From: a bacterium
GTDB taxonomy: Bacteria; Hydrothermota; UBA3073; JACQXS01; JAQTXJ01
DNA length: 64,000 bases
Direction: 5' to 3'
NCBI GenBank assembly: GCA_041649255.1
Contig: JBAZNK010000004.1
Location: 28,647-92,646 of the forward strand
Part shown: in pieces, positions 7,513-34,928 of the stretch
Layout: every line of letters starts with the position of its first letter
Numbering within the stretch: position 1 is the stretch's first letter
The notes under the pieces: generated by a model
Database searches by the model: none
The model's input: the letters and a program-made list of their open reading frames with translations, nothing else
Told to the model about the DNA's origin: nothing
Made by a program: the position numbers and the translations under genes

Positions 7513-7680
7513 ATTGTCGTTTAATATCTTATACTTACTATTTTGTCAACAAGAATTTCAACTATTATTAAATATCCTTGAATAAAGTTCTATTATTGTC
7601 ATAATTTGTATAAGGGGATGCTACAAAATATATCAAAGATCTATATAGAATAGATTCGATTTTTCAATACCTTATTTATG

Positions 7681-7875: not shown

Positions 7876-8034
7876 TTCTATCCCCTCCAAGTTATAAACT
7901 CTTTTGACCTAAATTCTACCCTGACAGAACTACTTCTCTTCATTATTTAATTATTCCTGCTTTATATATATAATAAACTAAAAAATTATCTACATATCTA
8001 TAATTCCAAATATTATAACACTTTATTATATATA

Positions 8035-8229
8035 TTAAGCATCCACGGGAAACATCTTTGTCATGCTATTCGCAAGTCTTTCTTTCCTTGCAATATCCTC
8101 TTCCGATGGAATTTGTTTAACTATTTCACCGGTTTTAGAGTCTTGAATCCTATAAACTGGAATTTCTCTCCCATTTGAATGCATACCCGGAGACACTATA
8201 TAAAAAGTGGGGGACGTATTTATTTCCAT
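8035..8229 (-). CDS. Small conserved hypothetical protein (64 aa), tandem paralog 2 downstream of fliD
   Basis: MEINTSPTFYIVSPGMHSNGREIPVYRIQD...; GGAGGAG RBS 8 nt upstream; paralog of 7681..7875. Confidence 0.5.
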   Translation of the reverse strand: MEINTSPTFYIVSPGMHSNGREIPVYRIQDSKTGEIVKQIPSEEDIARKERLANSMTKMFPVDA

Positions 8230-8278
8230 TTTCTCTCCTCCTTCATTACAAGAAGTTCCTTGGGCTTTAGCCCTTAGA

Positions 8279-10186
8279 TTAAACTGTTGCAGCGCTTAAA
8301 AACGACTGCATAGATAAATATTGGCTCTGGTATTGAGTCATCATAACTTGCATTTGTGCAAGTTGTTTTGTATATGCCTCTACTCTCTTATCTATTCTTG
8401 ATTGCATTGACGTAATTCTAATATCAAGGTAGTTACTTTTACTATCCTGACCACTTATACTTTTTCCTACATAACCACCACTCTTAACATAATTATCAAC
8501 ATAATCATACAATTTTGATGCTTTTCCATATCCGGTATCCCCGGTAATTAATTGAAATAATTCTGATACATTGGAAGCTTTATTTGCAAGAGCATTTTCA
8601 AATTTATTAGTATCCGAAATCGAGTAATTCCCATTTGAATCGGCGGTTATACCTATTTGAGGAAGTTGTTCATAACCGGTATTAGCCACGCCGACAACTT
8701 TTTCTGACATATATCTCCTCAAATTTGAATACAACATTCTATAAATAGAGTTGTCGGAAAGCGGACCTTTGTCATATTCTCCTTCAGTTAATTTACGAGT
8801 CTTTGTTACTTCATCCAGATAATTAACCACATTATTATATGCACTTAGAAATGCTTGAACTTCTGCTTTTACTGATTCGGTATCGGAACCAACCGTAATA
8901 GTTACCGTTGGTGAAGTCTGAACCTTTATTAAATTCAATGTTAGTCCCGTAACTGCATCCGTAACCGTATTTGATTGCCGTTCCATAGATTCCGTATTAA
9001 TAATAAATTTAGAATTAAGTTCATCTTCTGCGTACACATAACCGCCTTCTCCATCTATCGCATCTTTTTTGGTTATCCTATTAAGTCCGGTAGTATTCGG
9101 GGAACCATCCCCAACAAGATTTCCTGTCACATCCTGGAGAGTAACGGTATAATTATTACCTGTTTCTTTACTCATAATTGTAAGTCTTGCTGTATCAGAG
9201 GTCGGATGAACGACAGTCGCAGTAACTCCTGAATCTGCATATCCGGCGCCACCTGCTGTATCTGTCTTTTGTGTTGTCCTGCCAAGTCCGGTAGTATTAT
9301 GTGAACTACTCCCAACAAGGTTCCCTGTTACATCTTCAAGAGTAACGGTATAATCATTACCTGTTTCTTTACTCATAACTGTAATTCTTGATGTCCCGGA
9401 AGTAGGATGCGTCACAGTCGCAGTAACCCTTGTGTCTGCAGCATTTATAGCCGCTGCCATATTGTCCATAATTGTATCGTTTGTATCGCTTGCAGAAACG
9501 TTTACCGCAATATCACTACTTGCAACTCCTTCTACAAGCACTTTAAACTTATATTCCCCGACATCTCCAGGGTTTTCTCCATATGTTTCATTCGCATCTA
9601 AATCTAAAGCCTCCCATATATCCGTTTCTGTACTTGTAAACCTGTCTGATGCCTGAATTGAATTCTGAGCTGCATTTATAGCAGTTGCCATATTTGTCAG
9701 AATTGTTTCATTTGTATCGCTCGCTGCAACGGTTACTGCAATATTGCCACTTGCAACACCTTCTTTAAGCACGTTAAATTTATATGTCCCGGCACCTAAA
9801 CTTAAATTTCCCCATATATCTGTTGCCGTATTTGTGAATTTATCCGATACCTGAATTGAATTTTTGGCTAACTGGGATATTGAAGTGTTATAATTCCCGG
9901 CCACTGCGGTACTCCCGGCAGATGCAGTAACAACATCAGTATCCGAAGAATTTGCTGATTTGCTATTAAAAGAATTAGCTCCTTCAGTAGTATTTTTTAT
10001 AGCATATGCCTGACTTTTTAATACATTTAATTTAGAAAGCAAGCTTGATAAAACTGAATTTGTAGATTGAATTACTGATTTTTGCGCCTTCAGTAAAGTA
10101 AGAGGTTGCTCAAGCTGTGTTCTGTAAGTTTGAATCATACTATCCAGAGCACTTGAGACAGAACCAGTCGACGATGTGCTTGCCAT
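8279..10186 (-). CDS. fliD: Flagellar filament capping protein FliD (hook-associated protein 2)
   Basis: 635 aa; FliD N-terminal and C-terminal coiled-coil domains around an internally duplicated Thr/Ser/Asn-rich central region. Confidence 0.85.
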   Translation of the reverse strand: MASTSSTGSVSSALDSMIQTYRTQLEQPLTLLKAQKSVIQSTNSVLSSLLSKLNVLKSQAYAIKNTTEGANSFNSKSANSSDTDVVTASAGSTAVAGNYNTSISQLAKNSIQVSDKFTNTATDIWGNLSLGAGTYKFNVLKEGVASGNIAVTVAASDTNETILTNMATAINAAQNSIQASDRFTSTETDIWEALDLDANETYGENPGDVGEYKFKVLVEGVASSDIAVNVSASDTNDTIMDNMAAAINAADTRVTATVTHPTSGTSRITVMSKETGNDYTVTLEDVTGNLVGSSSHNTTGLGRTTQKTDTAGGAGYADSGVTATVVHPTSDTARLTIMSKETGNNYTVTLQDVTGNLVGDGSPNTTGLNRITKKDAIDGEGGYVYAEDELNSKFIINTESMERQSNTVTDAVTGLTLNLIKVQTSPTVTITVGSDTESVKAEVQAFLSAYNNVVNYLDEVTKTRKLTEGEYDKGPLSDNSIYRMLYSNLRRYMSEKVVGVANTGYEQLPQIGITADSNGNYSISDTNKFENALANKASNVSELFQLITGDTGYGKASKLYDYVDNYVKSGGYVGKSISGQDSKSNYLDIRITSMQSRIDKRVEAYTKQLAQMQVMMTQYQSQYLSMQSFLSAATV

Positions 10187-10266
10187 TTTTTCCTTATTAC
10201 CTCATTTTTTTTAATCTGTCAATTTTTTATTATGTAGGGACTTGATTTTCCAAGTCCATTATTTTT

Positions 10267-10599
10267 TTATAGTCCTTCGCTAAATTTTTGAAGATTAAAA
10301 GCCTTGATCCATGACTCTTTAAGTCCTTGTAATATATGCATTGGTTCACCGAAATGACCTTTTCTCGCTTCCGCCATAGCATATTGATAAAGTCTAAAAA
10401 GTCTTGCAGGTATTTCTCCGTGGTCAAAATTTAAAGAATCTATAAGTTCGGCAATTACTGCCAAAGTTTTTCCTTTATCTTTCGCTATACATGCTGATAC
10501 TCCTATATCATATAATTTTGCTATCAACTCTTCTTTTGATAACCCCATAATTTCTTCTTTCAGAAAAGTGTCTGACGCATAACCTGGCATTGTTCTCAT
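10267..10599 (-). CDS. fliS: Flagellar export chaperone FliS
   Basis: 110 aa helical protein immediately upstream of fliD in transcription order; FliS-like motifs (KLYDIGVSACIAKDKG, LYQYAMAEA). Confidence 0.75.
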   Translation of the reverse strand: MRTMPGYASDTFLKEEIMGLSKEELIAKLYDIGVSACIAKDKGKTLAVIAELIDSLNFDHGEIPARLFRLYQYAMAEARKGHFGEPMHILQGLKESWIKAFNLQKFSEGL

Positions 10600-10674
10600 T
10601 TTTTCTCCTTTATCCCGCCTTGGACGGGATTATCCCAAATTTGTGCTGGGGGACAAATCCTTTGTCCTCTAACC

Positions 10675-10723
10675 AAAAAACAATGCTACAGGGGAAGAAG
10701 AAATCCTCTCCACCTGTAGCAAT
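10675..10723 (-). terminator. Probable intrinsic terminator/attenuator downstream of flagellin
   Basis: Inverted repeat CTACAGG...CCTGTAG (10690-10723) followed on the minus strand by CAUUGUUUUUUGG. Two more hairpins lie before fliS (10645-10661 GGACAAAtccTTTGTCC; 10606-10626 ATCCCG..CGGGAT). Confidence 0.45.
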
Positions 10724-10747
10724 TGTTTTATTGTTTTTCATTGTCCT

Positions 10748-11620
10748 TTATTTACCAAGCAATCCGAGTACGAATGAAGGCGCTGTATTCGCCTGTGCAA
10801 GTCCGGCTATTGCAGATTGCTGCAATATTGTATACTTCGTTACAGCCAACTGTTCCTCAGCCATGTCAGCGTTCATTATTCTTGAATAAGTTGCCCAAAC
10901 ATCTGATTCATGCTGAGCAATTCTTCCTTCCTTCACTAATAGACGCTCTTCATAAGTTCCGATGATATTAACAGCGGACTTATCTACTTTTGCAACAGCG
11001 GTTATAAGTGACGCAAGTAATGAACTTGCTGCCGTAATAGTAGAAACGCTCATCGTAGTAATAGAGGCAACTCCCGTTAACTGTTTGAAAGTTAGTCCAC
11101 TTGCTAAATTGTGAACCGTGAATGAGAGTTTGCTTGTCGCTGAATCGCTCGTTGTACCAACCCATGTTGACCTGTTGGTAGAATAGCTACCTTTCAACAG
11201 ATGCAAGCCTCTATACTGAGTCTGTTCTACAGTCTGGTTTATTTCATTTGCAAGAGATTTGAGTTCAGCCAGGACATTTGCTCTGTCAGTTGTTGACAGC
11301 AAGTCAGATGCTGCCCCTTCTGCAAGGACTGACATCTGAGTAAGCATATCCTTAATCGCTACTGCACCTGTTTCTGCAGTAATAAAAAGATTTTGGGTGT
11401 CTTGCACGTTTGTAAGTGCTTTGTGCCACCTCAATGCTGTTCCCTCTAACTCTTTTGCAATAGAAAATTCTGCCGGACCTTCGCCTGCTGAGTTTAACCT
11501 TTTGCCTGTGGCAATTCTGAGTTGGTGAGTACCTAACTCACGGTTAACTGCATTCAAGGCGTTTGATGCATTCATCGCACCCATATTGGTGCGGATTCTC
11601 GCTAAGTCTCCGAATGGCAT
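10748..11620 (-). CDS. fliC: Flagellin (short, 290 aa; N- and C-terminal D0/D1 helices, small variable region)
   Basis: N-terminus (LRIATGKRLNSAGEGPAEFSIAKEL) and C-terminus (IMNADMAEEQLAVTKYTILQQSAIAGLAQAN) match conserved flagellin domains; GGAGG RBS at 11635-11640. Confidence 0.85.
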   Translation of the reverse strand: MPFGDLARIRTNMGAMNASNALNAVNRELGTHQLRIATGKRLNSAGEGPAEFSIAKELEGTALRWHKALTNVQDTQNLFITAETGAVAIKDMLTQMSVLAEGAASDLLSTTDRANVLAELKSLANEINQTVEQTQYRGLHLLKGSYSTNRSTWVGTTSDSATSKLSFTVHNLASGLTFKQLTGVASITTMSVSTITAASSLLASLITAVAKVDKSAVNIIGTYEERLLVKEGRIAQHESDVWATYSRIMNADMAEEQLAVTKYTILQQSAIAGLAQANTAPSFVLGLLGK

Positions 11621-11646
11621 TTAATTTTCCATCACCTCCTGAATTG

Positions 11647-11674
11647 ATTATCGCTTACTTTCCCCAAAACTTTA
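11647..11674 (-). promoter_or_regulatory. Sigma-28 (FliA)-like promoter for flagellin
   Basis: Minus strand reads cTAAAGTTT-N12-GCGATAAt, close to the TAAAGTTT-N11-GCCGATAA consensus; ~15 nt upstream of the RBS. Confidence 0.45.
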
Positions 11675-11782
11675 GAAAAAAATTAAAAAACCTTAAATTA
11701 TTTTTTCATACCCGAAAATAAATAACCGGAAACCTGTATATAAATGCGACTTAACGGGTATGTGCAGAACTATTATATAATT

Positions 11783-11813
11783 TGTAGGGAACGCATATAT
11801 GCGTTCCCTACAA
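11783..11813. promoter_or_regulatory. Perfect 13-bp-arm palindrome TAGGGAACGCATA|TATGCGTTCCCTA between the island and the flagellin promoter (operator or terminator)
   Basis: Directly visible in sequence; loop-less and without a flanking U-tract, which favours a dimeric protein-binding site over a terminator. Confidence 0.5.
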
Positions 11814-11905
11814 ATTGATATTCAATTCTTCATTGAACTTGTGTGCCGGATACTCACTTAGCTGGGCCAGATGAGGGATTTCTTACCAGCTCTTGGATGT
11901 AATCC

Positions 11906-13405
11906 TTAGAGTTTGTTATCCACCTCTGCTGGAGCATCCCCTTGTCTATTTACTTTCCCCTTCTCTATTCCCTTAACTTTTGTAAATATTTCTATCGCTT
12001 TATTCTCATTTCCGGATTTCTGGTAACATAGAGCAAGATTTTTTAATGCAGGAACAAATTCGGGATTCAATTTAAGCGCCTCTTCCAATTGAAAAATTGC
12101 TTTATCATACAATCCTTTTAACATATAACCGAATCCGAGTTTATTACATATTTCACAATCCTTTTGTCCGAGTAGAATCGCCTTTTCAAAACAATCACAT
12201 GCTTCGTCTACATTTAGAATCTTCAACAATAATTCTCCCAACAAAACATACAAAACAGGATTATCCGGTTGGATACTTATTGCGTTTTTATAAGATTCCA
12301 TTGCTTTTTCTAATTCATCTTGCTGTTCATAAATCCTGCTTAATTTAAGATACGGCACAACATAATTTTTATCCGTTTCTATTGCCTCATTATAATAAAA
12401 GATAGCTTTATCATTCAATCCTGCTGATTCATAAACTTCCCCAAGCATCTCATATATTACCTGCGGCGTCATTTTTATATAAAATAATCTATGTTGAATG
12501 AGTTGACATTTCTTTAACGCAATTTTTAACTCTTTTACCGCATCAATATATTCTTCCTTTATTGAATAAGAGTGAGCAGCATGAACATTAAACATGCACT
12601 CATCGGGATACAACTTAATTGACTTGCTACACCATTCCAATGCCTTATCCGGCTCCTTTTTTCCATTATACGCATCTATTATATATATATGTGTGAATAA
12701 TCGAAAATGTGGAGATGAAACATCAGAACTAATAACCTTATGGAAATGCTTTATTGCCGAATTTTCATCCCCCATCGCGTGGTATTTCGAACCAAGATAA
12801 AAATTAACAACAGGGGAATCAGGATCTTTTTTATACCATTCTTTTAATATTTTTAGACGTCCTTCCTTCTTTTTTAATTCTCCGGAAAGATAACCCACAT
12901 GATATATAAATATATCCATTATTTTTACTTTAATTTTAAGTTTTTGCATAGATTCTTCCAGATCATTGTGAATCACACCACTATAACAAATCCCGGGAAT
13001 ATTTTTAAAAAGCCTTATTAATATGTTAACATCAAAAGCAGGAGAATAGGGGATAAAAAAATTCCTCGTACTAATTGCATACGCATCATATTCAGGATTC
13101 TGCAGCAATGTTTCTATTTTTTTTCTATTCTCTTCATCTATATACTCATCCGCATCTATAATTAGTATCCATTCTTTTGTAACATATTTTAATGACTCAT
13201 TCCTCGCTGCCGAAAAATCATCGCACCACTTAAAATAATATACTTTTGCCCCGTATGATTTGGCTATTTCTACCGTTTTATCACTTGAACCGGTATCTAC
13301 TACTATTATCTCATCTACTAAGTCCTTAAAACTATCCAGACATCTTGGTAAATTCTTTTCCTCATCTTTTACAATCATACATAGGGATATGCTTTGTTTT
13401 TTCAT
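11906..13405 (-). CDS. GT2 family glycosyltransferase fused to C-terminal TPR repeats (GmaR-like architecture), paralog 1
   Basis: 499 aa; N-terminal GT-A fold (ISLCMIVKDEEKNL...IVVDTGSSD...DADE DxD-type motif); C-terminal half TPR-like. Confidence 0.75.
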   Translation of the reverse strand: MKKQSISLCMIVKDEEKNLPRCLDSFKDLVDEIIVVDTGSSDKTVEIAKSYGAKVYYFKWCDDFSAARNESLKYVTKEWILIIDADEYIDEENRKKIETLLQNPEYDAYAISTRNFFIPYSPAFDVNILIRLFKNIPGICYSGVIHNDLEESMQKLKIKVKIMDIFIYHVGYLSGELKKKEGRLKILKEWYKKDPDSPVVNFYLGSKYHAMGDENSAIKHFHKVISSDVSSPHFRLFTHIYIIDAYNGKKEPDKALEWCSKSIKLYPDECMFNVHAAHSYSIKEEYIDAVKELKIALKKCQLIQHRLFYIKMTPQVIYEMLGEVYESAGLNDKAIFYYNEAIETDKNYVVPYLKLSRIYEQQDELEKAMESYKNAISIQPDNPVLYVLLGELLLKILNVDEACDCFEKAILLGQKDCEICNKLGFGYMLKGLYDKAIFQLEEALKLNPEFVPALKNLALCYQKSGNENKAIEIFTKVKGIEKGKVNRQGDAPAEVDNKL

Positions 13406-13542
13406 ATAAAAGTTCCCCTTGCTTATTCTTCAATATCAACTTCTATTCTTCTTTTGTTCCCGAGCCTTTAGCTTGCTTAGAACTGGTTTCCCACCCTTAC
13501 TCGTCATTCCCGTGTAAGCGGGAATCCAGTATTTTTGCTGTT

Positions 13543-14520
13543 TTATTTTCTTATCAAATCCTCTACAAGTTTATTTACAGTTTTCAATTGCTTCTCTGAT
13601 GAATAATGTTCATCAATAAATTCTTTATATTCTATTGATTTATAATCTTTCGAAAACACCAATTTTCTAAATTTTTCAGGTGTTTCAAATAAATATTTCT
13701 CAGGATAAATCTCATTTGCCCCCGGGAAATAGTGAATAATAGGTTTTATCCCTCTTGCCATAGCTTCCATTATTCCCATTCCCTGGCTTTCTCGGATACT
13801 TGTAGAAATAATAAAGTTTTTGTCTTCTAACCAGTTATTTATATCTTTTATAAACCCATAAAAAGTTATGTTCTTTTCCAAATGCCACAACTTAATTATA
13901 TGGTCGAAATAATCTTTTATTTCAAGTGCAGGAGGATAATCATCATTGCATCGTCCGACAATATGTAATTTATATTTTGGGTTCAGGTTAACTATTTCCT
14001 TAAAACACTGTAATAACAAGGGAATGTTTTTCGCGGGACGGAAATCTCCGATAAATGCAATATTATATCCCGGTTTTCTATCTTTAAATGCAAAATTATC
14101 CACGTCCACTCCATTAGGAATGACAACAGTGTCGACTTTTTCTTCAAGAAAAGGCACTAATCTTTTCGTTTTTTCTTTTATATGATTGGCAACAAAGATC
14201 AACCTATCAACTCCTCCCCATCTCACCATTGAAGGCGTTCCCGTATACGTTTCATAACTGTGCAACCGGCAAACAACCTTACATATTTTAGGTCTCTGTG
14301 TCACATAAGCCAAAATAGGTTTACACCATTCAAACCAGGAAACATCACTCCATTGCATAATATCGTACAATTCTTCCGCCGTATTCCCGGAAAACACTTT
14401 TGTTTCATACCTTACAGATAAATTTTTAATAATTGGATCTAAAAAAGAAAATTCTCCGGGTTCAGCAATAAAAGCAATACGAGGTTTCCCGGAAGTATTT
14501 TTAATGCCTACACCCATCAT
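13543..14520 (-). CDS. Glycosyltransferase, GT1/GT4-like (GT-B fold)
   Basis: 325 aa; C-terminal EGFG-like nucleotide-sugar binding region (RESQGMGIMEAMARGIKPI). Confidence 0.6.
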   Translation of the reverse strand: MMGVGIKNTSGKPRIAFIAEPGEFSFLDPIIKNLSVRYETKVFSGNTAEELYDIMQWSDVSWFEWCKPILAYVTQRPKICKVVCRLHSYETYTGTPSMVRWGGVDRLIFVANHIKEKTKRLVPFLEEKVDTVVIPNGVDVDNFAFKDRKPGYNIAFIGDFRPAKNIPLLLQCFKEIVNLNPKYKLHIVGRCNDDYPPALEIKDYFDHIIKLWHLEKNITFYGFIKDINNWLEDKNFIISTSIRESQGMGIMEAMARGIKPIIHYFPGANEIYPEKYLFETPEKFRKLVFSKDYKSIEYKEFIDEHYSSEKQLKTVNKLVEDLIRK

Positions 14521-14726
14521 TTATCTCCTCTTTTCTGCACCTGTCTGCCATTTTTTGACAGATATTCCCCATGTTTTATTTCTAATATATATATTTGATA
14601 TTTAATTTTTTTACAGACTCTTTGGTAATAACCATTAGAGCTCGTTATCCCGTTCCAGCGGGGGATTTTTAATTTATCTCTCATTATGCATGCCCATTTC
14701 TCACCCACTACTCATATCTCTTTCTC

Positions 14727-16223
14727 TCACCGTTTCTCCAGCCTTCTCACTTTCGTAAATACCTCTACCGCTTTATTCTCGTCCCCGACTTTCTGATAAC
14801 ATAGAGCAAGGTTTTTTAATGCAGGAACAAATTCGGAATTCAATTTAAGCGCCTCTTCCAATTGAAAAATTGCTTTATCATACAAGCCTTTTAACATATA
14901 ACCGAATCCGAGTTTATTACATATTTCACAAGTCTTTTGTCCGAGTAGAATCGCTTTTTCAAAACAATTACATGCTTCATCTACATTTAGAGTTTTTAAT
15001 AATAGCCCTCCAAATAAAACATATAAAACAGGATTATCGGGCTGAATACTTATTGCGTTTTTATAAGATTCCATTGCTTTTTCCAATTCATTTTGCTGCT
15101 CATAAATCCTGCTTAATTTAAGATACGGCACAATATAATTCCTATCCGTTTCTATCGTCTTGTTATAATAAAATATAGCTTTATCTTTCAATCCTGCTGA
15201 CTCATAAACTTCTCCAAGCATCTCATATATTACCTGCGGTGTCATTTCCATATAAAATAATCGTCGCTGAACCAGCTGACATTTCTTTAGTGCAATTTTT
15301 AACTCTCTTACCGCATCAATATATTCATCCTTTAATGAATAGGAATGAGCCGCATGAACGTTAAACATACATTCATCGGGATATAACTTAATTGACTTGC
15401 TACACCATTCCAACGCATTATCTGGATCTTTTTTCCCATTATACGCATCTATTATATATATATATGAGAATAATCGAAAATGTGCATACGGCGTATCCGA
15501 ATCAATAACTTTACGGAAATGTTTTATTGCCGAACTTTCATACCCCATTGCGTGGTATTTTGAAGCAAGATAAAAATTAATAATGGGCGAATCAGGCTCT
15601 TTTTTATGCCATTCTCTTAATATTTTCAAACGACCTTTTTTCTTTTTCAATTCTCCGGGAAGATAACCTGTATGATATATAAATATATCTGTAATTTTTA
15701 CTCTTAATTTAAGTTTGCGTATAGATTCCTCTATGTCATTATGAATTACACCACTATAATATAAGCCATGGGTATTTTTATAAAGACGGATTAACACATT
15801 AATATCATAAGCAGGAGAATGTGCTATATAAAAGTTCTTGATATTAATCCCATATGCATCATAGTCTGCACTCTGGAGCAAAACTCTAATTTTAGCCTTA
15901 TTTTCTTCATCTATATATTCATCCGCATCTATACTAAATATCCATTCTTTCGTTGCATATTTCAATGTTTCATTCCGTGCTTTTGAAAAATCATCGCACC
16001 AGTTAAAATAATATATTTTTGCCCCGTATGATTTGGCTATTTCTACCGTTCTATCACTTGACCCGGTATCCACTATTATTATTTCATCTGCTAAGTCCTT
16101 TACGCTTTCCAGACATTTCGACAAGTTTTTTTCTTCGTTCTTTACCATCATACATAATGAAATAGTTGGAACTCTATGATCAACCGTCTGTAATTTTTTA
16201 ATTTCACTATTGTTTTTATTCAT
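14727..16223 (-). CDS. GT2 family glycosyltransferase fused to TPR repeats (GmaR-like), paralog 2
   Basis: 498 aa; same architecture as 11906..13405. The 3' two-thirds are near-identical at DNA level; the antisense shadow ORFs 12097..12348 and 14870..15121 are homologous. Confidence 0.75.
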   Translation of the reverse strand: MNKNNSEIKKLQTVDHRVPTISLCMMVKNEEKNLSKCLESVKDLADEIIIVDTGSSDRTVEIAKSYGAKIYYFNWCDDFSKARNETLKYATKEWIFSIDADEYIDEENKAKIRVLLQSADYDAYGINIKNFYIAHSPAYDINVLIRLYKNTHGLYYSGVIHNDIEESIRKLKLRVKITDIFIYHTGYLPGELKKKKGRLKILREWHKKEPDSPIINFYLASKYHAMGYESSAIKHFRKVIDSDTPYAHFRLFSYIYIIDAYNGKKDPDNALEWCSKSIKLYPDECMFNVHAAHSYSLKDEYIDAVRELKIALKKCQLVQRRLFYMEMTPQVIYEMLGEVYESAGLKDKAIFYYNKTIETDRNYIVPYLKLSRIYEQQNELEKAMESYKNAISIQPDNPVLYVLFGGLLLKTLNVDEACNCFEKAILLGQKTCEICNKLGFGYMLKGLYDKAIFQLEEALKLNSEFVPALKNLALCYQKVGDENKAVEVFTKVRRLEKR

Positions 16224-18423
16224 CTTTTTCTAAAAGCTCCTTTAAAACTGCTTGTCGAAAACTATCAACACTATTTGTAACTTGTCCCCGTTTGTCAAAC
16301 ATAATCCCAAGACTGGAGTCATATTCCTGGAGATTTAAAATTGGAACGCACCAATTCCCGGAGACTATACTTAATATTTTTTCACATCTATCCACATATC
16401 TATAATGTTGATGGACTAATTGGTACCCTGCTTTTGCTATATGCTCCCTTTCATCTTCATTTTCTAAATAATATTTAATTTTTTTCACCAGATCATCAAA
16501 ATCGTGCACTTTCCAATAAATCAGATGCTTTCCGTTTGCAAACATATCCGGCATTGAAATCTCTTCTGTAAGTGCAAAAGTCCCTGTTCCAAGAATTTCA
16601 TGCAGCCGTGTCTCTGTATTTAACAACTCTGTAAAGTGAAGGTTGAGAAAAATCTTACATTGATTGATAAAACAATTTAATTCTTCTCCATATACGCTTT
16701 TATAAACTATGTTAATTCCTTCTTTCTGGAGAGAATTCAATATTTCTTGCCTGCGAGGGGAAATAAGTCCTGAAAAGCCAATATCATATATTTTAGGGGT
16801 ATCTATCTTTTTATGTATTTTAGGATTTACTCCTGAGGTACTTACCCAAAATACATTCTTTCCACCGAGTTCTCTTATTTCATTAAGTGCGCTATAGTCG
16901 TGATGAAAGAACATATCAAAAGCTGATATATTTTGTTTAAGGTTTTCTGCGTTTATTTTTGACCTCCAGTCAGCAATTTCAGAACGCTGGTGAATTAATT
17001 CACCATACCATACAACAGTAGGTTTTGGGAAGAATTTGATCACCCCCGGGGGAATACCGTGTCCCTGTAATACTATTGTTATATCGGCAGATGAATAAAT
17101 AACATTTGAAAGACTTTCTTTACGGGAATCAAAAGTCTTTATTTCATACCCAAGCTGTTGAAATGCATCTAAAACATGATATTCGACTCCCCATTTGTTA
17201 CTAAAAACACCAACAAGATTTATCTTTTTTATCGGATATTCCAAATTTTCTTTTTTTGAATGCAATGCCACAATTTCTCTAATTTGACAAGTTGAATCCG
17301 TCTCGGACAGACTCGCCTCAACCTTTTCCCCTTTTCCGTACCTACCTGCCAATTCACTTTGCAGGTCTCCATCTCCCAAAACTTTCAAAACTTCCAACCA
17401 ACGTTTTTCCCATGTATGTTCTCTAAGCGCCCTTTTTCTCGCATTAATACCAATCCTTATAGTTTCTTCGGGATGGGCAATATAATACTTTACTCTCTTT
17501 AGAAGTTCTTTTTCATTTCGATAAAAAAGAATTTCTTTGTCCAGTTCAAAATAATTGGATAATTCTTCATTATAAGTGGTTAAATATGCAACTCCGGTCA
17601 TTGGAACCTCAAAGTCTCTGCCTTTCATTGCTTTTGCATCTTTCGTATATCCAAATCCTAAAGTAATAAATGAATTATGATAAATTCTAATCATTTCTTC
17701 TTGTGAAACCTCACCTTCAGGCCACTCCTTGCCTCTTGCATAAACAGGGATTCCATTCTTTTTTAGCATTTCAATAATCCCGGTACGGATACCGTAGTTT
17801 TGTCCTATAAAACTAACGGGTATATTTTTTTGAATTGTTCTTCTCTCTTTCCCAAAAACCTTCTCATTTGCCCCGGGAGGAACAAATAAAGGTGTCGCGC
17901 CAACTGACAAATATTTTTCCACATCCTTCCTACTCTGTGCAGTAATACAAACATCAAAAATAGAGGCTATTTCTCCATTTCCACTCCACCCTGTTGTTTC
18001 TTTCTTGCCCCAAAAACAACTCGTATCATCAAAACCAAAATTTATCGTTATTATACCCATTTCATTTATCTGTTGTATGGTTTCTCTAAAAACCCATCTA
18101 CCGGAAAGATACCCAAAAAAAATATGGATTGGCTTTTGCAAATGCGCTTCTTTCACTTTTTCTAACAATATATTATTAAACTCATTTTTTTTAATAGTAT
18201 GCCAATCTAAGGAATATTGATTATATTCTTCTCCCCAATCATAATGGACAACATCCGCAATCTTATTCCATGAATCCACTAAACCGGCTTTTTCCCAATT
18301 AATGTTTTTTACGGCAATAAAAATTCTTGGACGGGTATTATAAGGTATTTTTTTGTTCTGCTGTTTCAATTTATTTCTGATTGACCTTACCAAATCCTTG
18401 TCTTTTATAAAACTCTTATCCAT
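16216..18423 (-). CDS. Protein with two tandem CgeB-like (DUF3880 + Glyco_trans_1_2-type) glycosyltransferase-like domains
   Basis: 735 aa; two repeats each ending in the CgeB-family motif (...ARKRALREHTWEKR... and ...AKAGYQLVHQHYRYVDR...). Confidence 0.5.
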   Translation of the reverse strand: MDKSFIKDKDLVRSIRNKLKQQNKKIPYNTRPRIFIAVKNINWEKAGLVDSWNKIADVVHYDWGEEYNQYSLDWHTIKKNEFNNILLEKVKEAHLQKPIHIFFGYLSGRWVFRETIQQINEMGIITINFGFDDTSCFWGKKETTGWSGNGEIASIFDVCITAQSRKDVEKYLSVGATPLFVPPGANEKVFGKERRTIQKNIPVSFIGQNYGIRTGIIEMLKKNGIPVYARGKEWPEGEVSQEEMIRIYHNSFITLGFGYTKDAKAMKGRDFEVPMTGVAYLTTYNEELSNYFELDKEILFYRNEKELLKRVKYYIAHPEETIRIGINARKRALREHTWEKRWLEVLKVLGDGDLQSELAGRYGKGEKVEASLSETDSTCQIREIVALHSKKENLEYPIKKINLVGVFSNKWGVEYHVLDAFQQLGYEIKTFDSRKESLSNVIYSSADITIVLQGHGIPPGVIKFFPKPTVVWYGELIHQRSEIADWRSKINAENLKQNISAFDMFFHHDYSALNEIRELGGKNVFWVSTSGVNPKIHKKIDTPKIYDIGFSGLISPRRQEILNSLQKEGINIVYKSVYGEELNCFINQCKIFLNLHFTELLNTETRLHEILGTGTFALTEEISMPDMFANGKHLIYWKVHDFDDLVKKIKYYLENEDEREHIAKAGYQLVHQHYRYVDRCEKILSIVSGNWCVPILNLQEYDSSLGIMFDKRGQVTNSVDSFRQAVLKELLEKDE

Positions 18424-18484
18424 AATTATTTCTATAAACTATATTTTTTTAATATTATTTTTCTTACATTTACACTAATCACTT

Positions 18485-20368
18485 TTATTTCTCGGGCAAG
18501 GGTTTTACAGCAACTACCCTGAGGAAGTGGTCCAGACTTTTCCCCTCTTTCAGAGCCACATCAGTATGGTAATCTCGTGGTATTTCTTCAACAATATTCT
18601 CAAACCCACTTTCTTTAAGAAAACGGGATAACCTCTCAAAATTATACCCTGCTAAATGACAATCCGCTCTGCTACGTTGCCCGCCAAAAATCATCGTCAT
18701 ATTATGGTCTGTTGGGGCATTCATATAATCTTCAATACATTTATCCCCATTTGGACATTCAATAATCAGCTTCCCCCCGGGTTGAAGCACCCTGAACCAT
18801 TCTTTCAACATTTGTTTAGCTTCCGGTATTAAAACATGTTCTATCATATGATATGATTCTACCAGTTCCGCGCTATTACCCTGGAATCCTAAGCTACATG
18901 CATCCATTATTACATCTGCAAACGAATTCTTGTAAAGGTCAATATTAACGTATCCTTTTTTATATACTTTACCACAGCCAATATGTAACCTTAGCTTGTT
19001 ATCACAAACCTGTACTAACGGCGCATAATCATTTAATTCTTCTTTCATCACCCTTAATAAATTTCGTTTCAGGGTATTAAAATCAAACTTTTCACATACC
19101 AACTTTCTTGCATTTTTACTCATTTTTTCCACTAACCGTGGATTATTGGCCAAAAAATTCATTTTTATTGCCAGGTCATTTAGATTAACAATTTCCTCTG
19201 GGAAAGCAATATTATCTTCCCTCACTACTTTATTTGCAACCTCTACCAATAATCCATTATGTTTATTTTTAACAAACTCATTCATAGGAGGAGCATTTGT
19301 AGTGATTGCCGGCAAACCACAAGCTAAGGCTTCTATCAAACTCAAGCCCAATCCATCTAATTTGGACGGGTAAACATAAATTAATCCTTTATGGTAGAGT
19401 CCAGGTAGAGGAATTGTTCCCACACAATAAGTAATTCTTTCATTCTTTTGGACAATCCCAACAATTTCTAACGGTAGTTTTTCCAATCCAATCTGGGAAT
19501 GAATTAAAAGAGAGAAATGAGGATTATATTTTGATATCGCATCAAAAGCCAGTATAACCGCAGGAGTCATCTTACGATAATTTATTCCCACCCATCCCGC
19601 ATTATGGAAAAAAGTATATTGAGCTTTTTCTTTTTTAGGCATAAAAAGCTCGGTATCTGTTCCCCAACCAATATAATGAGCATTGCAAAAATCTTTAACA
19701 AGGTCAAAAGTTCTTTTCGTAGAACACAATACCATATCATACAGTTTCATATAAGGCTTCCAATCTTCCTTATAATAATCAAGATAAGTTATGATTTTTA
19801 CTCCTTTTTGTTTACAAAAAATAATTAGATTCCAATCATACTCTTCATTAAATATAATCATACCTATATTGTTATCGTCAATCCATTTTGCAATTATATT
19901 GTGTGGGATAAGATACTGATTAAAAGTTGTAAGGTTCGAAACTTCCCATTCTCCCTTTGTTTTTAAAGAAGGATTCTCAGGCGTTCCTCCATTCCTTGCA
20001 AAAACAAAAGTATTGTATTCTTCGGACAGCGCATCTCTTATTGTTTTTGTGACATACGCCTGACCTCTTTCAAACCACAAACTTATAAATCCAATATTAA
20101 GTTTATTAGAACATTTTTTTCCCTTTCTTGCTTGGAGTTTTGCTTCGCCAGAAACATTAGTGCAAGTTATCCTGCTCCGCCGTGCTTGCTTACAAAGTCT
20201 ATATATAGAAGAATAACGTTCTTTTACTTCAGGATGTGCTTCTGTTATTGCATCTAACCTAAGCATTGCTTCTTCTGTTTTCCCGCACTTAATTAATGCC
20301 CGGATACGAACTATTTTATCATCAAAATTCATATTCCTCAATTGCCACTCTAATCCCGAGTTTGCCAC
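18485..20368 (-). CDS. Bifunctional protein: N-terminal TPR-like helical module + GT-B glycosyltransferase + C-terminal class I SAM-dependent methyltransferase
   Basis: 627 aa; GT-B motif (GLGLSLIEALACGLPAITT); C-terminal MTase motifs (LHIGCGKVYKKGYVNIDL motif I; LQPGGKLIIECPN). Confidence 0.65.
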   Translation of the reverse strand: MANSGLEWQLRNMNFDDKIVRIRALIKCGKTEEAMLRLDAITEAHPEVKERYSSIYRLCKQARRSRITCTNVSGEAKLQARKGKKCSNKLNIGFISLWFERGQAYVTKTIRDALSEEYNTFVFARNGGTPENPSLKTKGEWEVSNLTTFNQYLIPHNIIAKWIDDNNIGMIIFNEEYDWNLIIFCKQKGVKIITYLDYYKEDWKPYMKLYDMVLCSTKRTFDLVKDFCNAHYIGWGTDTELFMPKKEKAQYTFFHNAGWVGINYRKMTPAVILAFDAISKYNPHFSLLIHSQIGLEKLPLEIVGIVQKNERITYCVGTIPLPGLYHKGLIYVYPSKLDGLGLSLIEALACGLPAITTNAPPMNEFVKNKHNGLLVEVANKVVREDNIAFPEEIVNLNDLAIKMNFLANNPRLVEKMSKNARKLVCEKFDFNTLKRNLLRVMKEELNDYAPLVQVCDNKLRLHIGCGKVYKKGYVNIDLYKNSFADVIMDACSLGFQGNSAELVESYHMIEHVLIPEAKQMLKEWFRVLQPGGKLIIECPNGDKCIEDYMNAPTDHNMTMIFGGQRSRADCHLAGYNFERLSRFLKESGFENIVEEIPRDYHTDVALKEGKSLDHFLRVVAVKPLPEK

Positions 20369-20514
20369 GGGATATGTATATTTATTTTATATAACAAAAA
20401 ACTAAGCTTTGTCAATGCTAATTTTTCAACAAATTCTTAGCTGCTTAGAGTTTGTTATCCTTAATAGAGTGAAGAATTACAAGTTTTTATCTGTCTGCAT
20501 TAGTCTAAGTGGTT

Positions 20515-21708
20515 TTAATCGAATTCTTTTTTAATCAAAAATAATTTTTCAAGATGCCCCGACAACCCATACCCTGGTTCAATTTTTATAGCTCTTTGTA
20601 AATATTCTATCGCGTTGTCAATTTCGTTTTCTTCTTCGTATAATTTTACTAATTTAAGATATGGAGTAAGGTAATCTGGAGTAATTTCAATCGCTTTTTT
20701 ATAATAAAAAATAGCTTTTTCAATAATCCCAAGACACTCATAATTTGCACCTATCATTCCATATATTACGGACGGGGATACTTCCATATTAAATAATGAC
20801 TCGGTATTCCGTTTATTTAATTTTTTCATCCCATTTTTCAATTCTTTGATACTTTCTAAATATTCTTTTTTCAAATTATACGATTGTGACGCCATAATAT
20901 GTAACATAAAGTCATCCGGATATACCCTTAATGTCTTTCTAAACCATTTTAATGCCTCGTCCGGTAATTCTTTTTTATTATAAATATCAATTATATGAAG
21001 CATCCCCGGTAAAAAAATGGCTGATATTTGTGAAACAACTGCTTTCTTAAAATGCTCAATAGCTGTATCATAGTTACTCATAGATTCATATTTTTCACCA
21101 AGATAGAAATTAACAAGAGGGTCCGTTGGTGTTTCTTTATAACATTCTTTTAGCATATTAATTCTTTCTCCGTCATTTTTGTCCTTAGCTAAATATCCTG
21201 TATGGTATATGAAGATGTCTGTAATTCCTATTTTCACCCCTAACTTTTTAATGGAAGACTCTATCTGATTATGTATTTTTCCATTATAACAAATGCCGGG
21301 AATTTTTTTATAAAGTCTTATTAAAGTATTCACTGCAAATATAGGACTGTAAGGGGCAAGAAAATTTTTAGTGTTAATACTGTACGCACTGCACACCGGA
21401 TTTTGAAGAACTTGTTTGATTTTTTCTTTATTCCCAGAATCTATATATTCATCCGCATCTATAATCAGTATCCATTCTTTTGTTGCATATTTTAATGACT
21501 CATTCCTCGCTGCCGAAAAATCATCGCACCACTTAAAATAATATACTTTTGCTCCATATGACTTGGCTATTTCTACCGTTCTATCGGTTGAACCGGTATC
21601 TACTACTATTATCTCATCTACTAAGTCCTTAAAACTATCCAGACATCTTGGTAAATTCTTTTCCTCATCTTTTACAATCATACATAGGGATATGCTTTGT
21701 TTTTTCAT
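20515..21708 (-). CDS. GT2 family glycosyltransferase fused to TPR repeats (GmaR-like), paralog 3 (shorter, 397 aa)
   Basis: The first ~95 codons are near-identical in DNA to paralog 1 (21451-21708 vs 13141-13405); the remainder has diverged. Confidence 0.75.
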   Translation of the reverse strand: MKKQSISLCMIVKDEEKNLPRCLDSFKDLVDEIIVVDTGSTDRTVEIAKSYGAKVYYFKWCDDFSAARNESLKYATKEWILIIDADEYIDSGNKEKIKQVLQNPVCSAYSINTKNFLAPYSPIFAVNTLIRLYKKIPGICYNGKIHNQIESSIKKLGVKIGITDIFIYHTGYLAKDKNDGERINMLKECYKETPTDPLVNFYLGEKYESMSNYDTAIEHFKKAVVSQISAIFLPGMLHIIDIYNKKELPDEALKWFRKTLRVYPDDFMLHIMASQSYNLKKEYLESIKELKNGMKKLNKRNTESLFNMEVSPSVIYGMIGANYECLGIIEKAIFYYKKAIEITPDYLTPYLKLVKLYEEENEIDNAIEYLQRAIKIEPGYGLSGHLEKLFLIKKEFD

Positions 21709-21923
21709 AATTATTAATTTCCCTAATGTGAATTATTTCCCATAAACTCTGCCAAAAGTTGCTTTTGAAATAACCATTGGATTTTTTTATACGATAGGTA
21801 TCGGGACTTGATTTTACACTTCGGGACCCCGCTATGACAGCCGCATCAAGTCCATTTTCATCGACATCGGACATCATCAACGATGTTCCTACATCTCATT
21901 TATAACTATTCTTAATTACTTAT

Positions 21924-22538
21924 TTACTTTTCCAATTCTTTATTAACTATTTTAAGATTTTCTTTAGCTGTTTTATTATCCGGTTCAACTTTTAAAACTT
22001 TCTCATACCCTATTTTAGCTGATTCGTATTTACCCATCTTAAAATAACAATTAGCAAGCGCTATTAATGACCCAACTTCGGGTTGTTTTAATAATCCCGC
22101 CTCATAAAGAGGAATTGCCTGTTCATATTTACCGAGTTCAAAATACACATCTGCAAGGTTTTTCTTTGCACATATATTATTATCATCCATAGCAATTGCA
22201 GAGTGGAAAAAATTCTCAGCTTTTTTCTTATCTCCTCGGATAAAATATAAAGCTCCGATATTGCTATACACCTCTGTTGAAGGCTCAATATCAAGTGCCT
22301 TTTGATAAAATTCAATTGCTTTTTTAGAATCCTTTTTTATTGAATATATATTACCAAGGCCTATATACGGTTGGACAATGTCAGGATATTCCTTACTTAT
22401 CTCCTTGAATTTTTTTTCTGCCTCGTCAACTTTTCCGGTTTTTAAGAGTTTTATAGCTTGTTCAATTATTTTGTCCGGTTTTTCAAAATTTGTGTTAGGC
22501 ATTTGTTTCTTTGAAGATTTACTTTTTTTTGTATCCAT
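21924..22538 (-). CDS. TPR repeat protein with Lys-rich N-terminus
   Basis: 204 aa; 4-5 TPR units (AIEFYQKALDIEP, YEQAIPLYEAGL...). Confidence 0.65.
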   Translation of the reverse strand: MDTKKSKSSKKQMPNTNFEKPDKIIEQAIKLLKTGKVDEAEKKFKEISKEYPDIVQPYIGLGNIYSIKKDSKKAIEFYQKALDIEPSTEVYSNIGALYFIRGDKKKAENFFHSAIAMDDNNICAKKNLADVYFELGKYEQAIPLYEAGLLKQPEVGSLIALANCYFKMGKYESAKIGYEKVLKVEPDNKTAKENLKIVNKELEK

Positions 22539-22922
22539 TCTACCTCCTTCACTTCATTCGGGATATTTACCAGCCATTACCCAAAAGCTTCTAATCCCTT
22601 ACTCCATTTATTTTAAGAATTCCCTTCTTAAAACCATTGCTATGTTTCTTGCTATTTCATCTATTTCAGATGTATTATATAAATCAGTTACTGATTTATT
22701 CTGAATCGTTTTACACCTCTTTGCTACTTTTTTACCGTATTTCTTTTCTCTTTTTTTGTTTCCGTTCATAAATCCTCCATAGCTAAATATCTATATGTAT
22801 TATAGTATAGCAAATTCCGTGTCAAATGTAAAACTCTATAATTCATAGGGATTTCGACAATATATGCAATATGAGATATGAACATTCCCTCCTATTACAG
22901 CTAATTTTCTGCCCATTGTTTA

Positions 22923-25900
22923 TTAGTTATCATTTTTTAAAGTTTTATTTTCTTTAATAATCTTTACTTCTCTATTCAATCTTTCCGATTCCTGTGCAAA
23001 TCTAATAGATTTATCTTTTTCCCCTATTACTCTATAGCAAGTGCTTAAAATTTTATATGCAATCACCTTTTTAAATGCCTCTGTAAGCCTTCCTTCCGAT
23101 ATTAACTTTTCAAGTATCTTAATCGGCTTATTAAAGTTCTTTTGCTGCATAAAAACCATAGCAAGTTGGAAATAATAATACGCCTCTTCTTCTTGAGGTA
23201 GAATAATTACTTCCGGATAAAGTGTGCCTATTCTTTCAATCCCATTTTTAAAAGAGTTTTCTGCCTCTTGATACTTTTCAAGTTTTAAATAATATTCTCC
23301 AAGAAAATAGTACGGCAATGGAGAATTTGGAATAAGCTTGCTCGCAAAAATTACATTTTCAATAGCCTTTTTGAACCCTACTTCTCCTGCACTAACAGCG
23401 CTTTCTATAAGATATTTCAATGCATCATTTTCTTTGTTTATTTTTTCCACTTTCATTTCTTTTTCTTCAATAAACTTTTTTATCCAATCTTTTCCTTCAT
23501 ACCAGCTAATAACCCCATCAATCCCTTTTGCATAATAATAATTTAAAATAAGGGCGTAGCAAGTCTCTAAAAGCGGATCCCTGCTGAACTTGTAACTTTC
23601 TAATTCTTTTTCTGATAACTGCTCCAGTTTGGATACAAGATTTTCGGTATATTTTACTAATTCTTCCCTGTTATAAAAATCACATAAACATCTTCTTTTC
23701 GCTTCTTCCAGACTCCACATATCGGTATGCGGACATTTATAAGACAAAATGCCAAAACTCTCCCCTACTTTTACCTGTCTTTGAATATAACTTTTCAACT
23801 CCTGTTTATGATAATGATAAACGATAGCATCGGCATTATAAACTATTCTGTATTTATTTAGGGTTAATCTTAAACCTAATTCCGAATCCTGCCATCCATA
23901 TTTTAGGCTCTCATCAAACAGACCCGCTTCTTCAAAAGCGCTTCTTCTTAATGATATATTCGGGGCATAAAAATATCTAAATTCAACGTTGTCAGGAGAT
24001 TCAATACTCTCATAAGCAAACTGGATATCCCTGTTTTCTATATAGTTTATAAAATGCGATTTTTCTATTTCAGAAGGCCTTTGAATATACCCTAATACCA
24101 CTGTATTCTCATCCCCTTGTTGATGAGTATTTAAATGCTGCTTTATTAAATCTTTTTTTGCAATTACATCCTGACACGAAAGCAAAATGAATTTTCCCTT
24201 AGCTTCCTGTATCCCCTTATTTGTAGCAGCAGATTGACCTTTATGGGATTGTACATACTGCTTAAATTCACATGGGGCTTTTAATCCTTTAATGGCATCA
24301 ATAGTCCCATCCGTAGAACCATCGTCAACTACGATAATTTCCAAATCATCGGCATTAATACCATCCTGGTTGGCAAACGAATCAATACATTTAAGTAAAA
24401 TTTCTTTGTTATTATAAGAAGGAATAACTACCGATAATAGTTTTTCCTCGGGATACGTAAACTTAACTTTAATTTTATCCATTAAATCGGGTTTTATATG
24501 CCATACGGCAGTATCTTTAGCTTCTATAATCTTATATCCTTTGTTTATTATGCCCAATATAATTTCTTGCAAATTCTTACATTCCTTTGGTATAATTTCC
24601 TTTTTAATAATCATACAAGGAACATTTATGTTCTGAACTACAGTTTTTTCATTTCTGTATTTCTTATAATTTTCCCATACATCATTTTCAAATTCATATA
24701 TAAAATTATACTTAAAGGGCAAACTACTAGGAATAACTATTCCAGCGTCTTTCTTCCTATTTAGGTGACTCATTAAATGTTTATCCCATCGCAATGAGAC
24801 AACAACCCCACTATCCAGTATAGCAATATACTTACCCGAAGAATTTTGAATTATGTAATTTGTAATGTTTTCAAGTTCTTGCTCGTTTTCATATTTAATA
24901 TAAAACTTAAAATTTCGCTCCAATTCTCTGGCAATTTTATCACTTTTTGTCGCAATTAGTATGTCTGATAATTTCTCATCCGTATTAATTACCAAATTTT
25001 CTATAGAAGTTTTCGATATTTCCGTATCCTCCGTTACAATAAAAATTATAGTAAGTTCATTTAACAAATGAGACAACAAAGAAGAATCATAAGAAACTTT
25101 AAACCTTTCCGGGTATTTTTCTTTCGGCTCGGGTAATGTATTCCCAAGGTGAATTAACCTTTTTTCTACCATTTCGACGCTATAATTATCTTTAATAAGA
25201 GCTTTCCCATTTCGAGATAGTCTTTCCCACAATTCTTTATCATTATATACTTTAATTACCTCATTAGCAAAACTCTCAGGCGTATCTGCAATTAATCCGT
25301 GTTTGCCATTTTCTATTCCAATTCCTTCCGCTCCAATTGATGTGGTAACCACCGGAATGCCATTTGCAAGCGCTTCGGTCACTTTTCCTTTCATCCCCGC
25401 CCCATAAGTCAAAGGCGCAACCGAAATGCAACAGGAGTCAAGATATACATTAGTGTCGGGTACATACCCCGTTACGATAATGTCTTCAGACTCAAAAGCT
25501 CTAACTTCCGGAGGAGGAGCATTGCCAACTATAAAAAACTTTATATCCGGTAATTTTTTCTTAATTAAAGGAAATATCTCTTTACAAAAATATAACACCG
25601 CGTCTACATTAGGAGTATGTAAAAAACCTCCTACAAACAAAATATCTCCCCTGTTTTCCCTGCCAATAAAGTCTTCCGTGATTTTATGCGTATTGGGCAA
25701 AATTCTTATATCCAAATTGGGAGATTCCTTTAAAAGCGCTTCTCTATCCGTTTCGCAAACGGTTGTGACTACATCCATTTTTTCATAAGTTGCCAACTCT
25801 TTAATTTTATTATATGTAACTTTTCTAAAAAGAGATGGAATTCCTAAAATTTCTGCTTCTCGGAGTTCTCTCATAAAATGCACATCGTGACTATCCAGCA

Positions 25901-27527: not shown

Positions 27528-27610
27528 TCTTTAACTATAAGTTTTATTGGTTTTTTATTTGTTTAACTTTATTCATTATTATATTCTCTATTAACTTTTT
27601 GTATAAGACA

Positions 27611-34916: not shown

Positions 34917-34928
34917 ATTTCTTTTTCA

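Follow-up and report, generated by a model that had tools for sequence, protein, structure and literature searches.

Evidence for recurrent gene conversion confined to the donor-binding module of GmaR-like glycosyltransferase paralogs in a flagellin glycosylation island

Three paralogous genes, named g1, g2 and g3 here, are located on the minus strand of a 64,000-nt stretch of a bacterial metagenome-assembled genome (MAG; phylum Hydrothermota, contig JBAZNK010000004.1), to which we refer as the window. Each encodes an N-terminal glycosyltransferase (GT) domain of family GT2 (Pfam Glycos_transf_2) followed by C-terminal tetratricopeptide repeats (TPRs), and calling of open reading frames (ORFs) found all three intact at the positions given in the original prediction for this DNA. 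That prediction had taken patchwork identity among the three genes as a signature of recombination, and our results support this: the similarity of g1 and g3 is very probably the product of recurrent ectopic gene conversion. This level of confidence applies to the explanation as a whole, including the genomic island in which the genes reside, their function and the boundaries of the exchanged tract.

Identity was mapped by pairwise BLASTN, codon-aware alignment and sliding windows. Within nt 1–270 of the coding sequence g1 and g3 differ at only 10 positions (96.3% identity). The longest exact run of 122 nt begins 1 nt before the ATG and probably represents the most recent g1/g3 event. In the 30 nt following the tract there are 12 mismatches, and beyond this point identity amounts to about 55–65%. 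The predicted near-identity over the 5’ ~280 bp therefore holds for the coding part, but not for the upstream leader it was said to include: the regions upstream of g1 and g3 are unrelated, and a shared leader was rejected. Sites at which g1 equals g3 outnumber those at which g1 equals g2 by 38:8 in the tract, while elsewhere the ratio is 62:266 (Fisher p=2e-17, from the window alone), and in a MaxChi test none of 1000 permutations reached the observed value. Uniform divergence of the paralogs, which the breakpoint check by BLASTN proposed with the prediction could have revealed, is therefore rejected.

The downstream end of the tract lies just past the sequence DADEYID, which contains the DxD motif. 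The role of this motif is established for GT-A enzymes. In an AlphaFold2 model of g1 (pLDDT 93.9, pTM 0.88) residues 1–90 are predicted to fold as beta1-alpha1-beta2-alpha2-beta3-alpha3-beta4 with the DAD motif at residues 84–86, followed by a helix at 91–100, and residues 176–490 form helical repeats except for one short strand at 308–311. According to this model the tract would encode the nucleotide-sugar-binding half of the GT-A fold. The remainder of g1 and g3, comprising the acceptor-side half of the GT-A fold and the TPRs, is about 60% identical, follows orthology and is under purifying selection; the regions past the DxD motif and the TPRs are likely to set acceptor and sugar specificity.

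Scanning of species-representative genomes located two relatives that allow orthology to be compared with paralogy. STC_131 (JAQTXJ010000020.1, locus L003) is 94–97% identical at the DNA level and collinear with the window from position 26137 to 12897, its contig ending ~500 nt into g1. STD1_36 (JAQUPX010000003.1) is 81–92% identical. Its flagellin locus (L002) has only the GT1 gene and one g1 ortholog, and the g3 ortholog is found ~80 kb away on the opposite strand together with the TPR-only gene, a 1365-aa GT and the radical-SAM gene (L001/L004). Neither g2 nor the 735-aa GT of the window was found in the STD1_36 flagellin locus or in its split island. We determined the proportion of synonymous differences (pS) over the tract codons from SISLCM to DADEYID. 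If g1 is compared with g3 inside a genome, the window gives a pS of 0.14, STC_131 one of 0.04 and STD1_36 one of 0.22, in comparison to 0.55 between g1 orthologs and 0.57 between g3 orthologs (range 0.55–0.59). Downstream of the tract the situation is reversed, with pS between g1 and g3 saturated at about 0.7 and between orthologs at 0.27–0.61. The same contrast appears in the quartet of g1 and g3 from the window and from STD1_36: in the tract 27 informative sites group the genes by genome and one by orthology, whereas downstream 202 sites group them by orthology and 11 by genome (Fisher p=8e-26). Conversion persists in STD1_36 despite the ~80 kb separation and the inversion. Each lineage has its own tract substitutions common to both of its paralogs in the nucleotide alignment, and in 3 of 3 genomes tract identity ends at one position, right after GATGCGGATGA(G/A)TATATAGAT, which encodes DADEYID.

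Private states that distinguish STC_131 from the window and are common to both paralogs occur at 3 of 6 informative sites in the tract and at 0 of 64 downstream (p=4e-4), and exchange therefore went on after these two lineages split. From the alignments, conversion appears to have taken place independently in at least two lineages, window/STC_131 and STD1_36, and again after the divergence of the window from STC_131. The start of g3 in the window matches that of g1 (MKKQS) while g3 of STC_131 begins with MNKG; this difference suggests that in the window the last transfer went from g1 to g3. The strain comparison proposed with the prediction was thus borne out in part: the two relatives show recurrent conversion, but a scan of metagenome_contigs for g1 relatives returned only distant homologs of at most 61% identity, with no extra strains and no alternative recombinant forms. 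Several of the retrieved flagellar loci hold two or more GmaR-like GT2 genes. In tandem paralogs of Clostridium muellerianum and C. aestuarii the first ~270 nt are 80–96% identical and the sequence afterwards about 60–80%, and a Clostridium quartet gave 7:1 sites in the 5’ part versus 34:67 after it (p=0.004). Homogenisation of the 5’ module may therefore be a trait of the GT2+TPR family, for which this is modest evidence.

The relationship between g1 and g2 is of a different kind. A near-identical 3’ ~1 kb had been predicted for this pair; g1 is indeed closer to g2 than to g3 there, but the two are only 87.9% identical over 957 nt, the longest exact run is 48 nt, and just one patch of 180 nt reaches 95.6%. 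Likewise, the 5’ end of g2 had been described as different. Its first 15 codons are unrelated to g1, but the module behind them is still 83.5% identical, and the most divergent block (70.1%) lies further in, just past the DxD motif. Over successive zones g1/g2 pS drops from 0.64 to 0.38 and 0.11, and the last 60 nt of the genes are again only 70% identical. Since g3 is saturated and uninformative as an outgroup for the history of g1 and g2, the triplet of g1 and g2 from the window and the g1 ortholog of STD1_36 was used instead. In the block past the DxD motif g2 stands apart (34 sites versus 17), and g1 groups with its ortholog. In the 3’ part it is the STD1_36 ortholog that stands apart (103 versus 40; Fisher p=2e-6 for the contrast between zones), the window genes being closer to each other there than g1 is to its ortholog. 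Within the 180-nt patch 10 states are common to g1 and g2 of the window and missing from g2 of STC_131, with 5 showing the opposite pattern; elsewhere the counts are 19 versus 77 (p=4.5e-4). By these counts the 70% block appears to predate the split from STD1_36 and the ~960-nt 3’ part at 88% to postdate it, including a recent exchange in the 180-nt patch. On the basis of the site counts by zone and of pS, g1 can be described as a mosaic of three parts, in which a private block separates a module that has undergone exchange with g3 from a 3’ part that has done so with g2.

Could the tract be explained without recurrent recombination? Purifying selection on the nucleotide-binding module, perhaps with codon bias, would be expected to keep paralogs alike, and the module is indeed strongly conserved: it is 76–85% identical at the amino acid level to homologs from Clostridium and WOR-3, and in an alignment of 40 family members 11 of the 14 invariant columns fall within residues 1–90. 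However, these equally conserved homologs are only 49–54% identical at third codon positions, while g1 and g3 reach 91% (g1 and g2 71%), and protein-level constraint therefore cannot explain the tract. Moreover pS of 0.04–0.22 within genomes stands against about 0.56 between orthologs at the same codons, the paralogs group by genome, and g2, which carries the same module, is not homogenised with g1 (pS ~0.5). Selection alone is accordingly a very improbable cause. We attach just as little weight to a single ancient chimera that joined the g3 module to a g2-like body without further exchange. One inherited junction would account for the identical tract boundaries in all three genomes, but it predicts that the tract groups by orthology, which is the opposite of the 27:1 observed, and it fits neither the low pS within genomes nor the private substitutions that STC_131 and the window each have in both paralogs. 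A more plausible, though still improbable, alternative concerns the effect of recombination rather than its occurrence. The original prediction suggested that exchange could diversify flagellin modification; new GT specificities would then vary the flagellar glycan as in a contingency system. Flagellar glycans are surface-exposed, a setting in which variation is known to be selected. The three-part structure of g1 is in line with this idea, as is the variable island content among the relatives, STD1_36 having neither g2 nor the 735-aa GT at its flagellin locus. However, the best-supported tract is the least variable, specificity-neutral module, in which the paralogs are made alike, while the regions on the specificity side follow orthology (202:11) with dN/dS of 0.08–0.28. 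The surroundings hold no silent cassettes and no gene for an invertase or recombinase, homopolymer tracts of the G8/C8 type are absent from the whole window, and the metagenome collections yielded no alternative recombinant forms. The proposed analogy to the maf genes of Campylobacter was rejected as well, since MAF_flag10 (DUF115) was not detected in the island proteins scanned. As no other part of the protein is so conserved, conversion in the tract homogenises rather than diversifies: what results is concerted evolution of the donor-binding module and not the creation of new variants.

An artefact of metagenome assembly, either repeat collapse or mis-joining, also has to be considered. In its favour, the sequence comes from a MAG, the relatives have low coverage, and contig ends fall close by: that of STC_131 within g1 and that of a Logan contig at a palindrome just downstream of g1. 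Against this, the tract and its boundaries recur in three assemblies made independently from different samples, with lineage-specific substitutions in both paralogs of each, and the window and STC_131 are collinear across g3, g2 and the 5’ end of g1. Collapse could not have lifted 60% identity to 96%, and the 10 mismatches left in the tract show that the copies were not merged. Because the three assemblies agree and these mismatches remain, mis-joins and full repeat collapse are excluded, and an artefact of any kind is unlikely in the extreme, if slightly less so than selection alone or an ancient chimera. Several points nevertheless weigh against recurrent gene conversion as we describe it. 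The genomes compared are three metagenome assemblies of low coverage, for which contig names give 4.5x and 8.7x. Where copies resemble each other already, their identity could be raised further by bubble-popping, and a strain-chimeric consensus could mimic the small signals of recent exchange, which rest on 3 and 10 sites. With only two outgroup genomes the number and direction of events are poorly resolved, and for g1 of STC_131 the comparison covers only the 5’ part, as the contig stops inside the gene. Finally, neither the g1 protein nor any protein of more than 81% identity with it is present in a collection of 5.8 billion proteins that does contain g2, g3 and CysRS of the same 198-kb contig (198,475 nt). 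Perhaps the public record lacks an annotation for g1 or marks the gene as a pseudogene.

As to the mechanism, repeated non-reciprocal homologous recombination would have replaced the first ~270 nt of one gene, g1 or g3, by the sequence of the other. The simplest interpretation is ectopic gene conversion of the RecA type, initiated where protein constraint preserves DNA homology, and swaps inside the module of residues 1–90 would be nearly neutral. The upstream boundary may be set by the lack of homology. At the downstream boundary, ~40% divergence may halt the heteroduplex, selection may remove convertants in which specificity differences are erased, or both may act together.

The coordinates of the genes and of the exchanged segments are collected in Table 1.

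Table 1. Genes and segments of the glycosylation island and its flagellar neighbourhood (window coordinates)
Feature	Position	Strand	Description	Evidence
g1	11906..13405	-	Paralog of 499 aa, protein glycosyltransferase of the GT2 (GT-A)+TPR type; flagellin follows directly downstream	ORF; Pfam Glycos_transf_2 + TPR families
g2	14727..16223	-	GT2+TPR paralog, 498 aa	ORF; Pfam
g3	20515..21708	-	Shorter GT2+TPR paralog, 397 aa	ORF; Pfam
Conversion tract in g1	13136..13406	-	Codons 1–90, start codon to just past DADEYID (DxD)	
Conversion tract in g3	21439..21709	-	Partner of g1 13136–13406	
Longest g1/g3 exact run	13285–13406 vs 21588–21709	-	122 nt, begins 1 nt before ATG	
Divergent block of g1 just past DxD	12959..13132	-	70.1% vs g2, ~63% vs g3; g1 groups with STD1_36 ortholog	
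3’ part of g1	12002..12958 vs g2 14775–15731	-	87.9% over 957 nt; longest exact run 48 nt	
Recent g1/g2 exchange patch	12017..12196 vs g2 14790–14969	-	180 nt, 95.6% identical, pS 0.11	
FliD filament cap gene	8279–10186	-		Domain scan
FliS-like gene	10267–10599	-		Domain scan
Flagellin	10748..11620	-	290 aa	Pfam Flagellin_N/C
GT1/GT4-family glycosyltransferase	13543..14520	-	Between g1 and g2	Pfam
Glyco_trans_1_2 protein	16216–18423	-	735 aa, between g2 and g3	Pfam
GT1+methyltransferase fusion	18485–20368	-	Between g2 and g3	Pfam
TPR-only protein	21924..22538	-	204 aa, upstream of g3, separate gene; kept in both relatives	
Multi-glycosyltransferase	22923–27050	-	1375 aa, upstream of the 204-aa TPR-only gene	
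Remaining island genes	to 41752	-	GT9-like; 1657-aa B12/radical-SAM/TPR protein; four methyltransferases; two more GTs	

The genes g1–g3 sit within a ~30 kb flagellin glycosylation island (11906–41752) inside a flagellar gene cluster, in which GT, methyltransferase and radical-SAM genes are clustered beside flagellin and other flagellar genes. In the direction of transcription the order is the 1375-aa multi-GT, the TPR-only gene, g3, the GT1+methyltransferase fusion, the 735-aa GT, g2, the GT1 gene, g1, flagellin, the FliS-like gene and FliD. The three paralogs had been called tandem genes, but other GT genes lie in between and the arrangement is not strictly tandem. The flagellar context assumed in the prediction was confirmed on both sides of the island, with flagellin, FliS and FliD directly downstream and, past its other end on the plus strand, two sigma-54 activators (FleQ-like) as well as genes for a rod protein, FliF, FliG, FliH, FliI, FliK, FlgD, FlgE, MotA and FliM. 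The N-terminal extension of g2 consists of 15 codons and has an 8-nt overlap with the upstream gene. The shorter g3 is without the final ~100 aa of TPRs; its orthologs in the two other MAGs measure 396–405 aa. Because dN/dS between orthologs is 0.08–0.13, all three genes are under purifying selection and appear functional. A scan of the whole window against Rfam gave no matches at gathering thresholds, and a promoter and terminator scan of positions 10000–23200 performed no better than on shuffled sequence, so that operon structure could not be inferred. A search with CysRS of the same contig gave four close relatives of 62–92% identity, whereas the named taxa next in line reach at most 57% and are scattered over many phyla, so that it did not place the organism.

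The term GmaR-like proved appropriate at the domain level. The GT domain of Listeria GmaR (PDB 22ao) matches g1 residues 5–187 (E=2e-37, 132 bits), and the TPR region of PDB 7X9R, which comprises GmaR 141–637 (PMC9638930), aligns by its chain residues 8–241 with g1 143–370, the match stopping at residue 241 of 503. Like g1–g3, GmaR of Listeria monocytogenes, a flagellin O-GlcNAc transferase and MogR anti-repressor, has a GT-A domain followed by TPRs and is found in a flagellar locus with a short flagellin of ~290 aa. However, no counterpart of the linker or the anti-repressor domain of GmaR is present in g1–g3, which are 397–499 aa long as compared to 637 aa (GmaR layout from PMC9638930). Further differences are the presence of three paralogs instead of one and an unrelated organism of Gram-negative type with sigma-54 regulators. 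A MogR domain was not seen among the 39 window ORFs scanned, and both transcription regulators found are sigma-54 activators. With the anti-repressor domain missing and no MogR domain in these ORFs, the anti-repressor role to which the prediction had pointed was rejected.

The best structural matches of the g1 model over the whole architecture were the peptide S-glycosyltransferases SunS/ThuS (PDB 7MSN, 7MSK, 7MSP), with Foldseek E~4e-16 over 300–396 columns, and the sequence match to the SunS family has E=9e-25. Assignment to this family (NCBIfam TIGR04195) fails, with 87–101 bits against an equivalog cut-off of 350 bits, although the fold is similar. SunS/ThuS share the GT-A domain and the helical, TPR-like acceptor-binding domain with g1–g3; here, however, there is no glycocin peptide gene and the context is flagellar. 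GT2+TPR proteins of Clostridium flagellar glycosylation islands are regarded as candidate flagellin glycosyltransferases (PMC13317340), with the same domain architecture, a position next to flagellin and often two copies per island; the passages of that work retrieved by search terms do not mention gene conversion. The Clostridium proteins belong to another phylum and are only 53–56% identical to ours across the GT domain and 36–39% over the whole protein. In Caulobacter FlmG and in Maf (PMC7591256; bioRxiv 10.1101/2023.12.03.569772) a TPR domain likewise recognises flagellin while a separate catalytic domain transfers the sugar, and several Maf paralogs with different site specificity are known. 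FlmG differs in that its TPRs are N-terminal and its GT domain is another one, and Maf belongs to the MAF_flag10 family. Given the GmaR- and SunS-like domains, the Clostridium precedent and the Ser/Thr-rich central segment noticed on inspection of the window flagellin, it is a reasonable inference that g1–g3 most likely O-glycosylate this flagellin, which is their presumed acceptor.

Some observations concern the protein family as a whole. The conservation of the first ~87 residues (13136–13393 in g1, with homologs in loci L005, L007, L008 and L009), 76–85% identical between the window MAG, WOR-3 and Clostridium, includes a stretch of 34 identical residues, TVEIAKSYGAKVYYFKWCDDFSAARNESLKYATK; judged from these comparisons, constraint on the GT-A donor module appears unusually strong. 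Many members of the g1 family alignment with a length of 700–870 aa appear to hold two tandem GT2 modules, and the consensus shows the block SLCMIVKNEE...DADE twice. Duplication of the GT2 module thus seems to occur within single genes, too.

Other features were noticed near the paralogs and along the cluster. A near-perfect palindrome of 47 nt, TTTGTAGGGAACGCATA|TATGCGTTCCCTACAAA, lies at 11775–11821 between the stop codon of g1 and the start of flagellin with no T-run following it, and the Logan contig mentioned above (1.8 kb, with the same flagellin) terminates inside it. The palindrome might form a hairpin that ends or stabilises the transcript, or serve as an operator ahead of flagellin. 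Within the island a 121-nt repeat of 86% identity (34919–35039 and 37230–37350) extends over the ~35 C-terminal codons together with the stop/start junction of two different methyltransferase genes and may mark a second small patch of conversion or duplication. The two parts of the split island in STD1_36 (L002 and L001/L004) are located at about 241–262 kb and 321–343 kb, the distal part adjoining genes with the T9SS sorting domain Por_Secre_tail. A small gene of the PDDEXK_3 (PD-(D/E)XK nuclease-like) family is found there between the GT9-like and the 1365-aa GT gene (L001 4076–4459); DNA alignment places its counterpart in the window at ~27145–27528, where no ORF was called. Repeats also occur in the flagellar genes around the island: tandem repeats of ~117 nt with 95–97% identity (52708–53036, and 53267–53378 versus 53840–53951) within the 831-aa FliK-like hook-length control gene (52462–54957), internal repeats of ~200 nt with 74–80% identity in the central part of FliD (9037–9869), a direct repeat downstream of FliD (7672–7888 versus 8026–8241, 82% identity) and another between the two sigma-54 activator genes (43740–43902 versus 43876–44037, 76% identity). 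An ORF of 224 aa at 6838–7512 gave a partial, weak match to Ribosomal_L3 (E=1e-13, profile positions 210–290 of 369); it is located outside any ribosomal operon, between EIIA-like and flagellar genes.

Concerted evolution of paralogs for surface structures by gene conversion is known from flaA/flaB of Campylobacter and from babA/babB and futA/futB of Helicobacter pylori. These systems and g1/g3 have in common a partial, recurrent and non-reciprocal exchange between paralogs that leads to grouping by genome in one part of the gene. Here, however, conversion affects a conserved catalytic module for donor binding in cytoplasmic enzymes and not an exposed or antigenic region, and no role in phase variation is evident. 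A literature search on gene conversion in flagellin glycosylation genes returned nothing specific. The instance is new and well documented, while the process, domain-limited concerted evolution of paralogs, and the kind of locus are already known, and no new mechanism is involved.

In summary, g1 and g3 provide a clean case, with strong statistics, of domain-limited concerted evolution between paralogous bacterial enzymes: the tract is bounded by the start codon and the DxD motif, which delimit a structural unit. Trees and ortholog calls based on the N-terminal domain of GT2+TPR flagellin glycosyltransferases will be misleading, and assemblers may break or collapse contigs at such genes. A far-reaching and rather improbable extension would be that the module serves GmaR-like flagellin GTs in general as a portable recombination handle, with crossovers reassorting acceptor and TPR parts even over ~80 kb in inverted orientation and perhaps between genomes. 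If this were true, glycosylation islands would be rearranged and new enzyme combinations created in this way, and the 5’ pattern in Clostridium and the split island of STD1_36 would be traces of one mechanism. For this poorly characterised family the findings suggest a design rule, according to which the donor-binding module is functionally interchangeable and specificity resides in the region past the DxD motif and in the TPRs.

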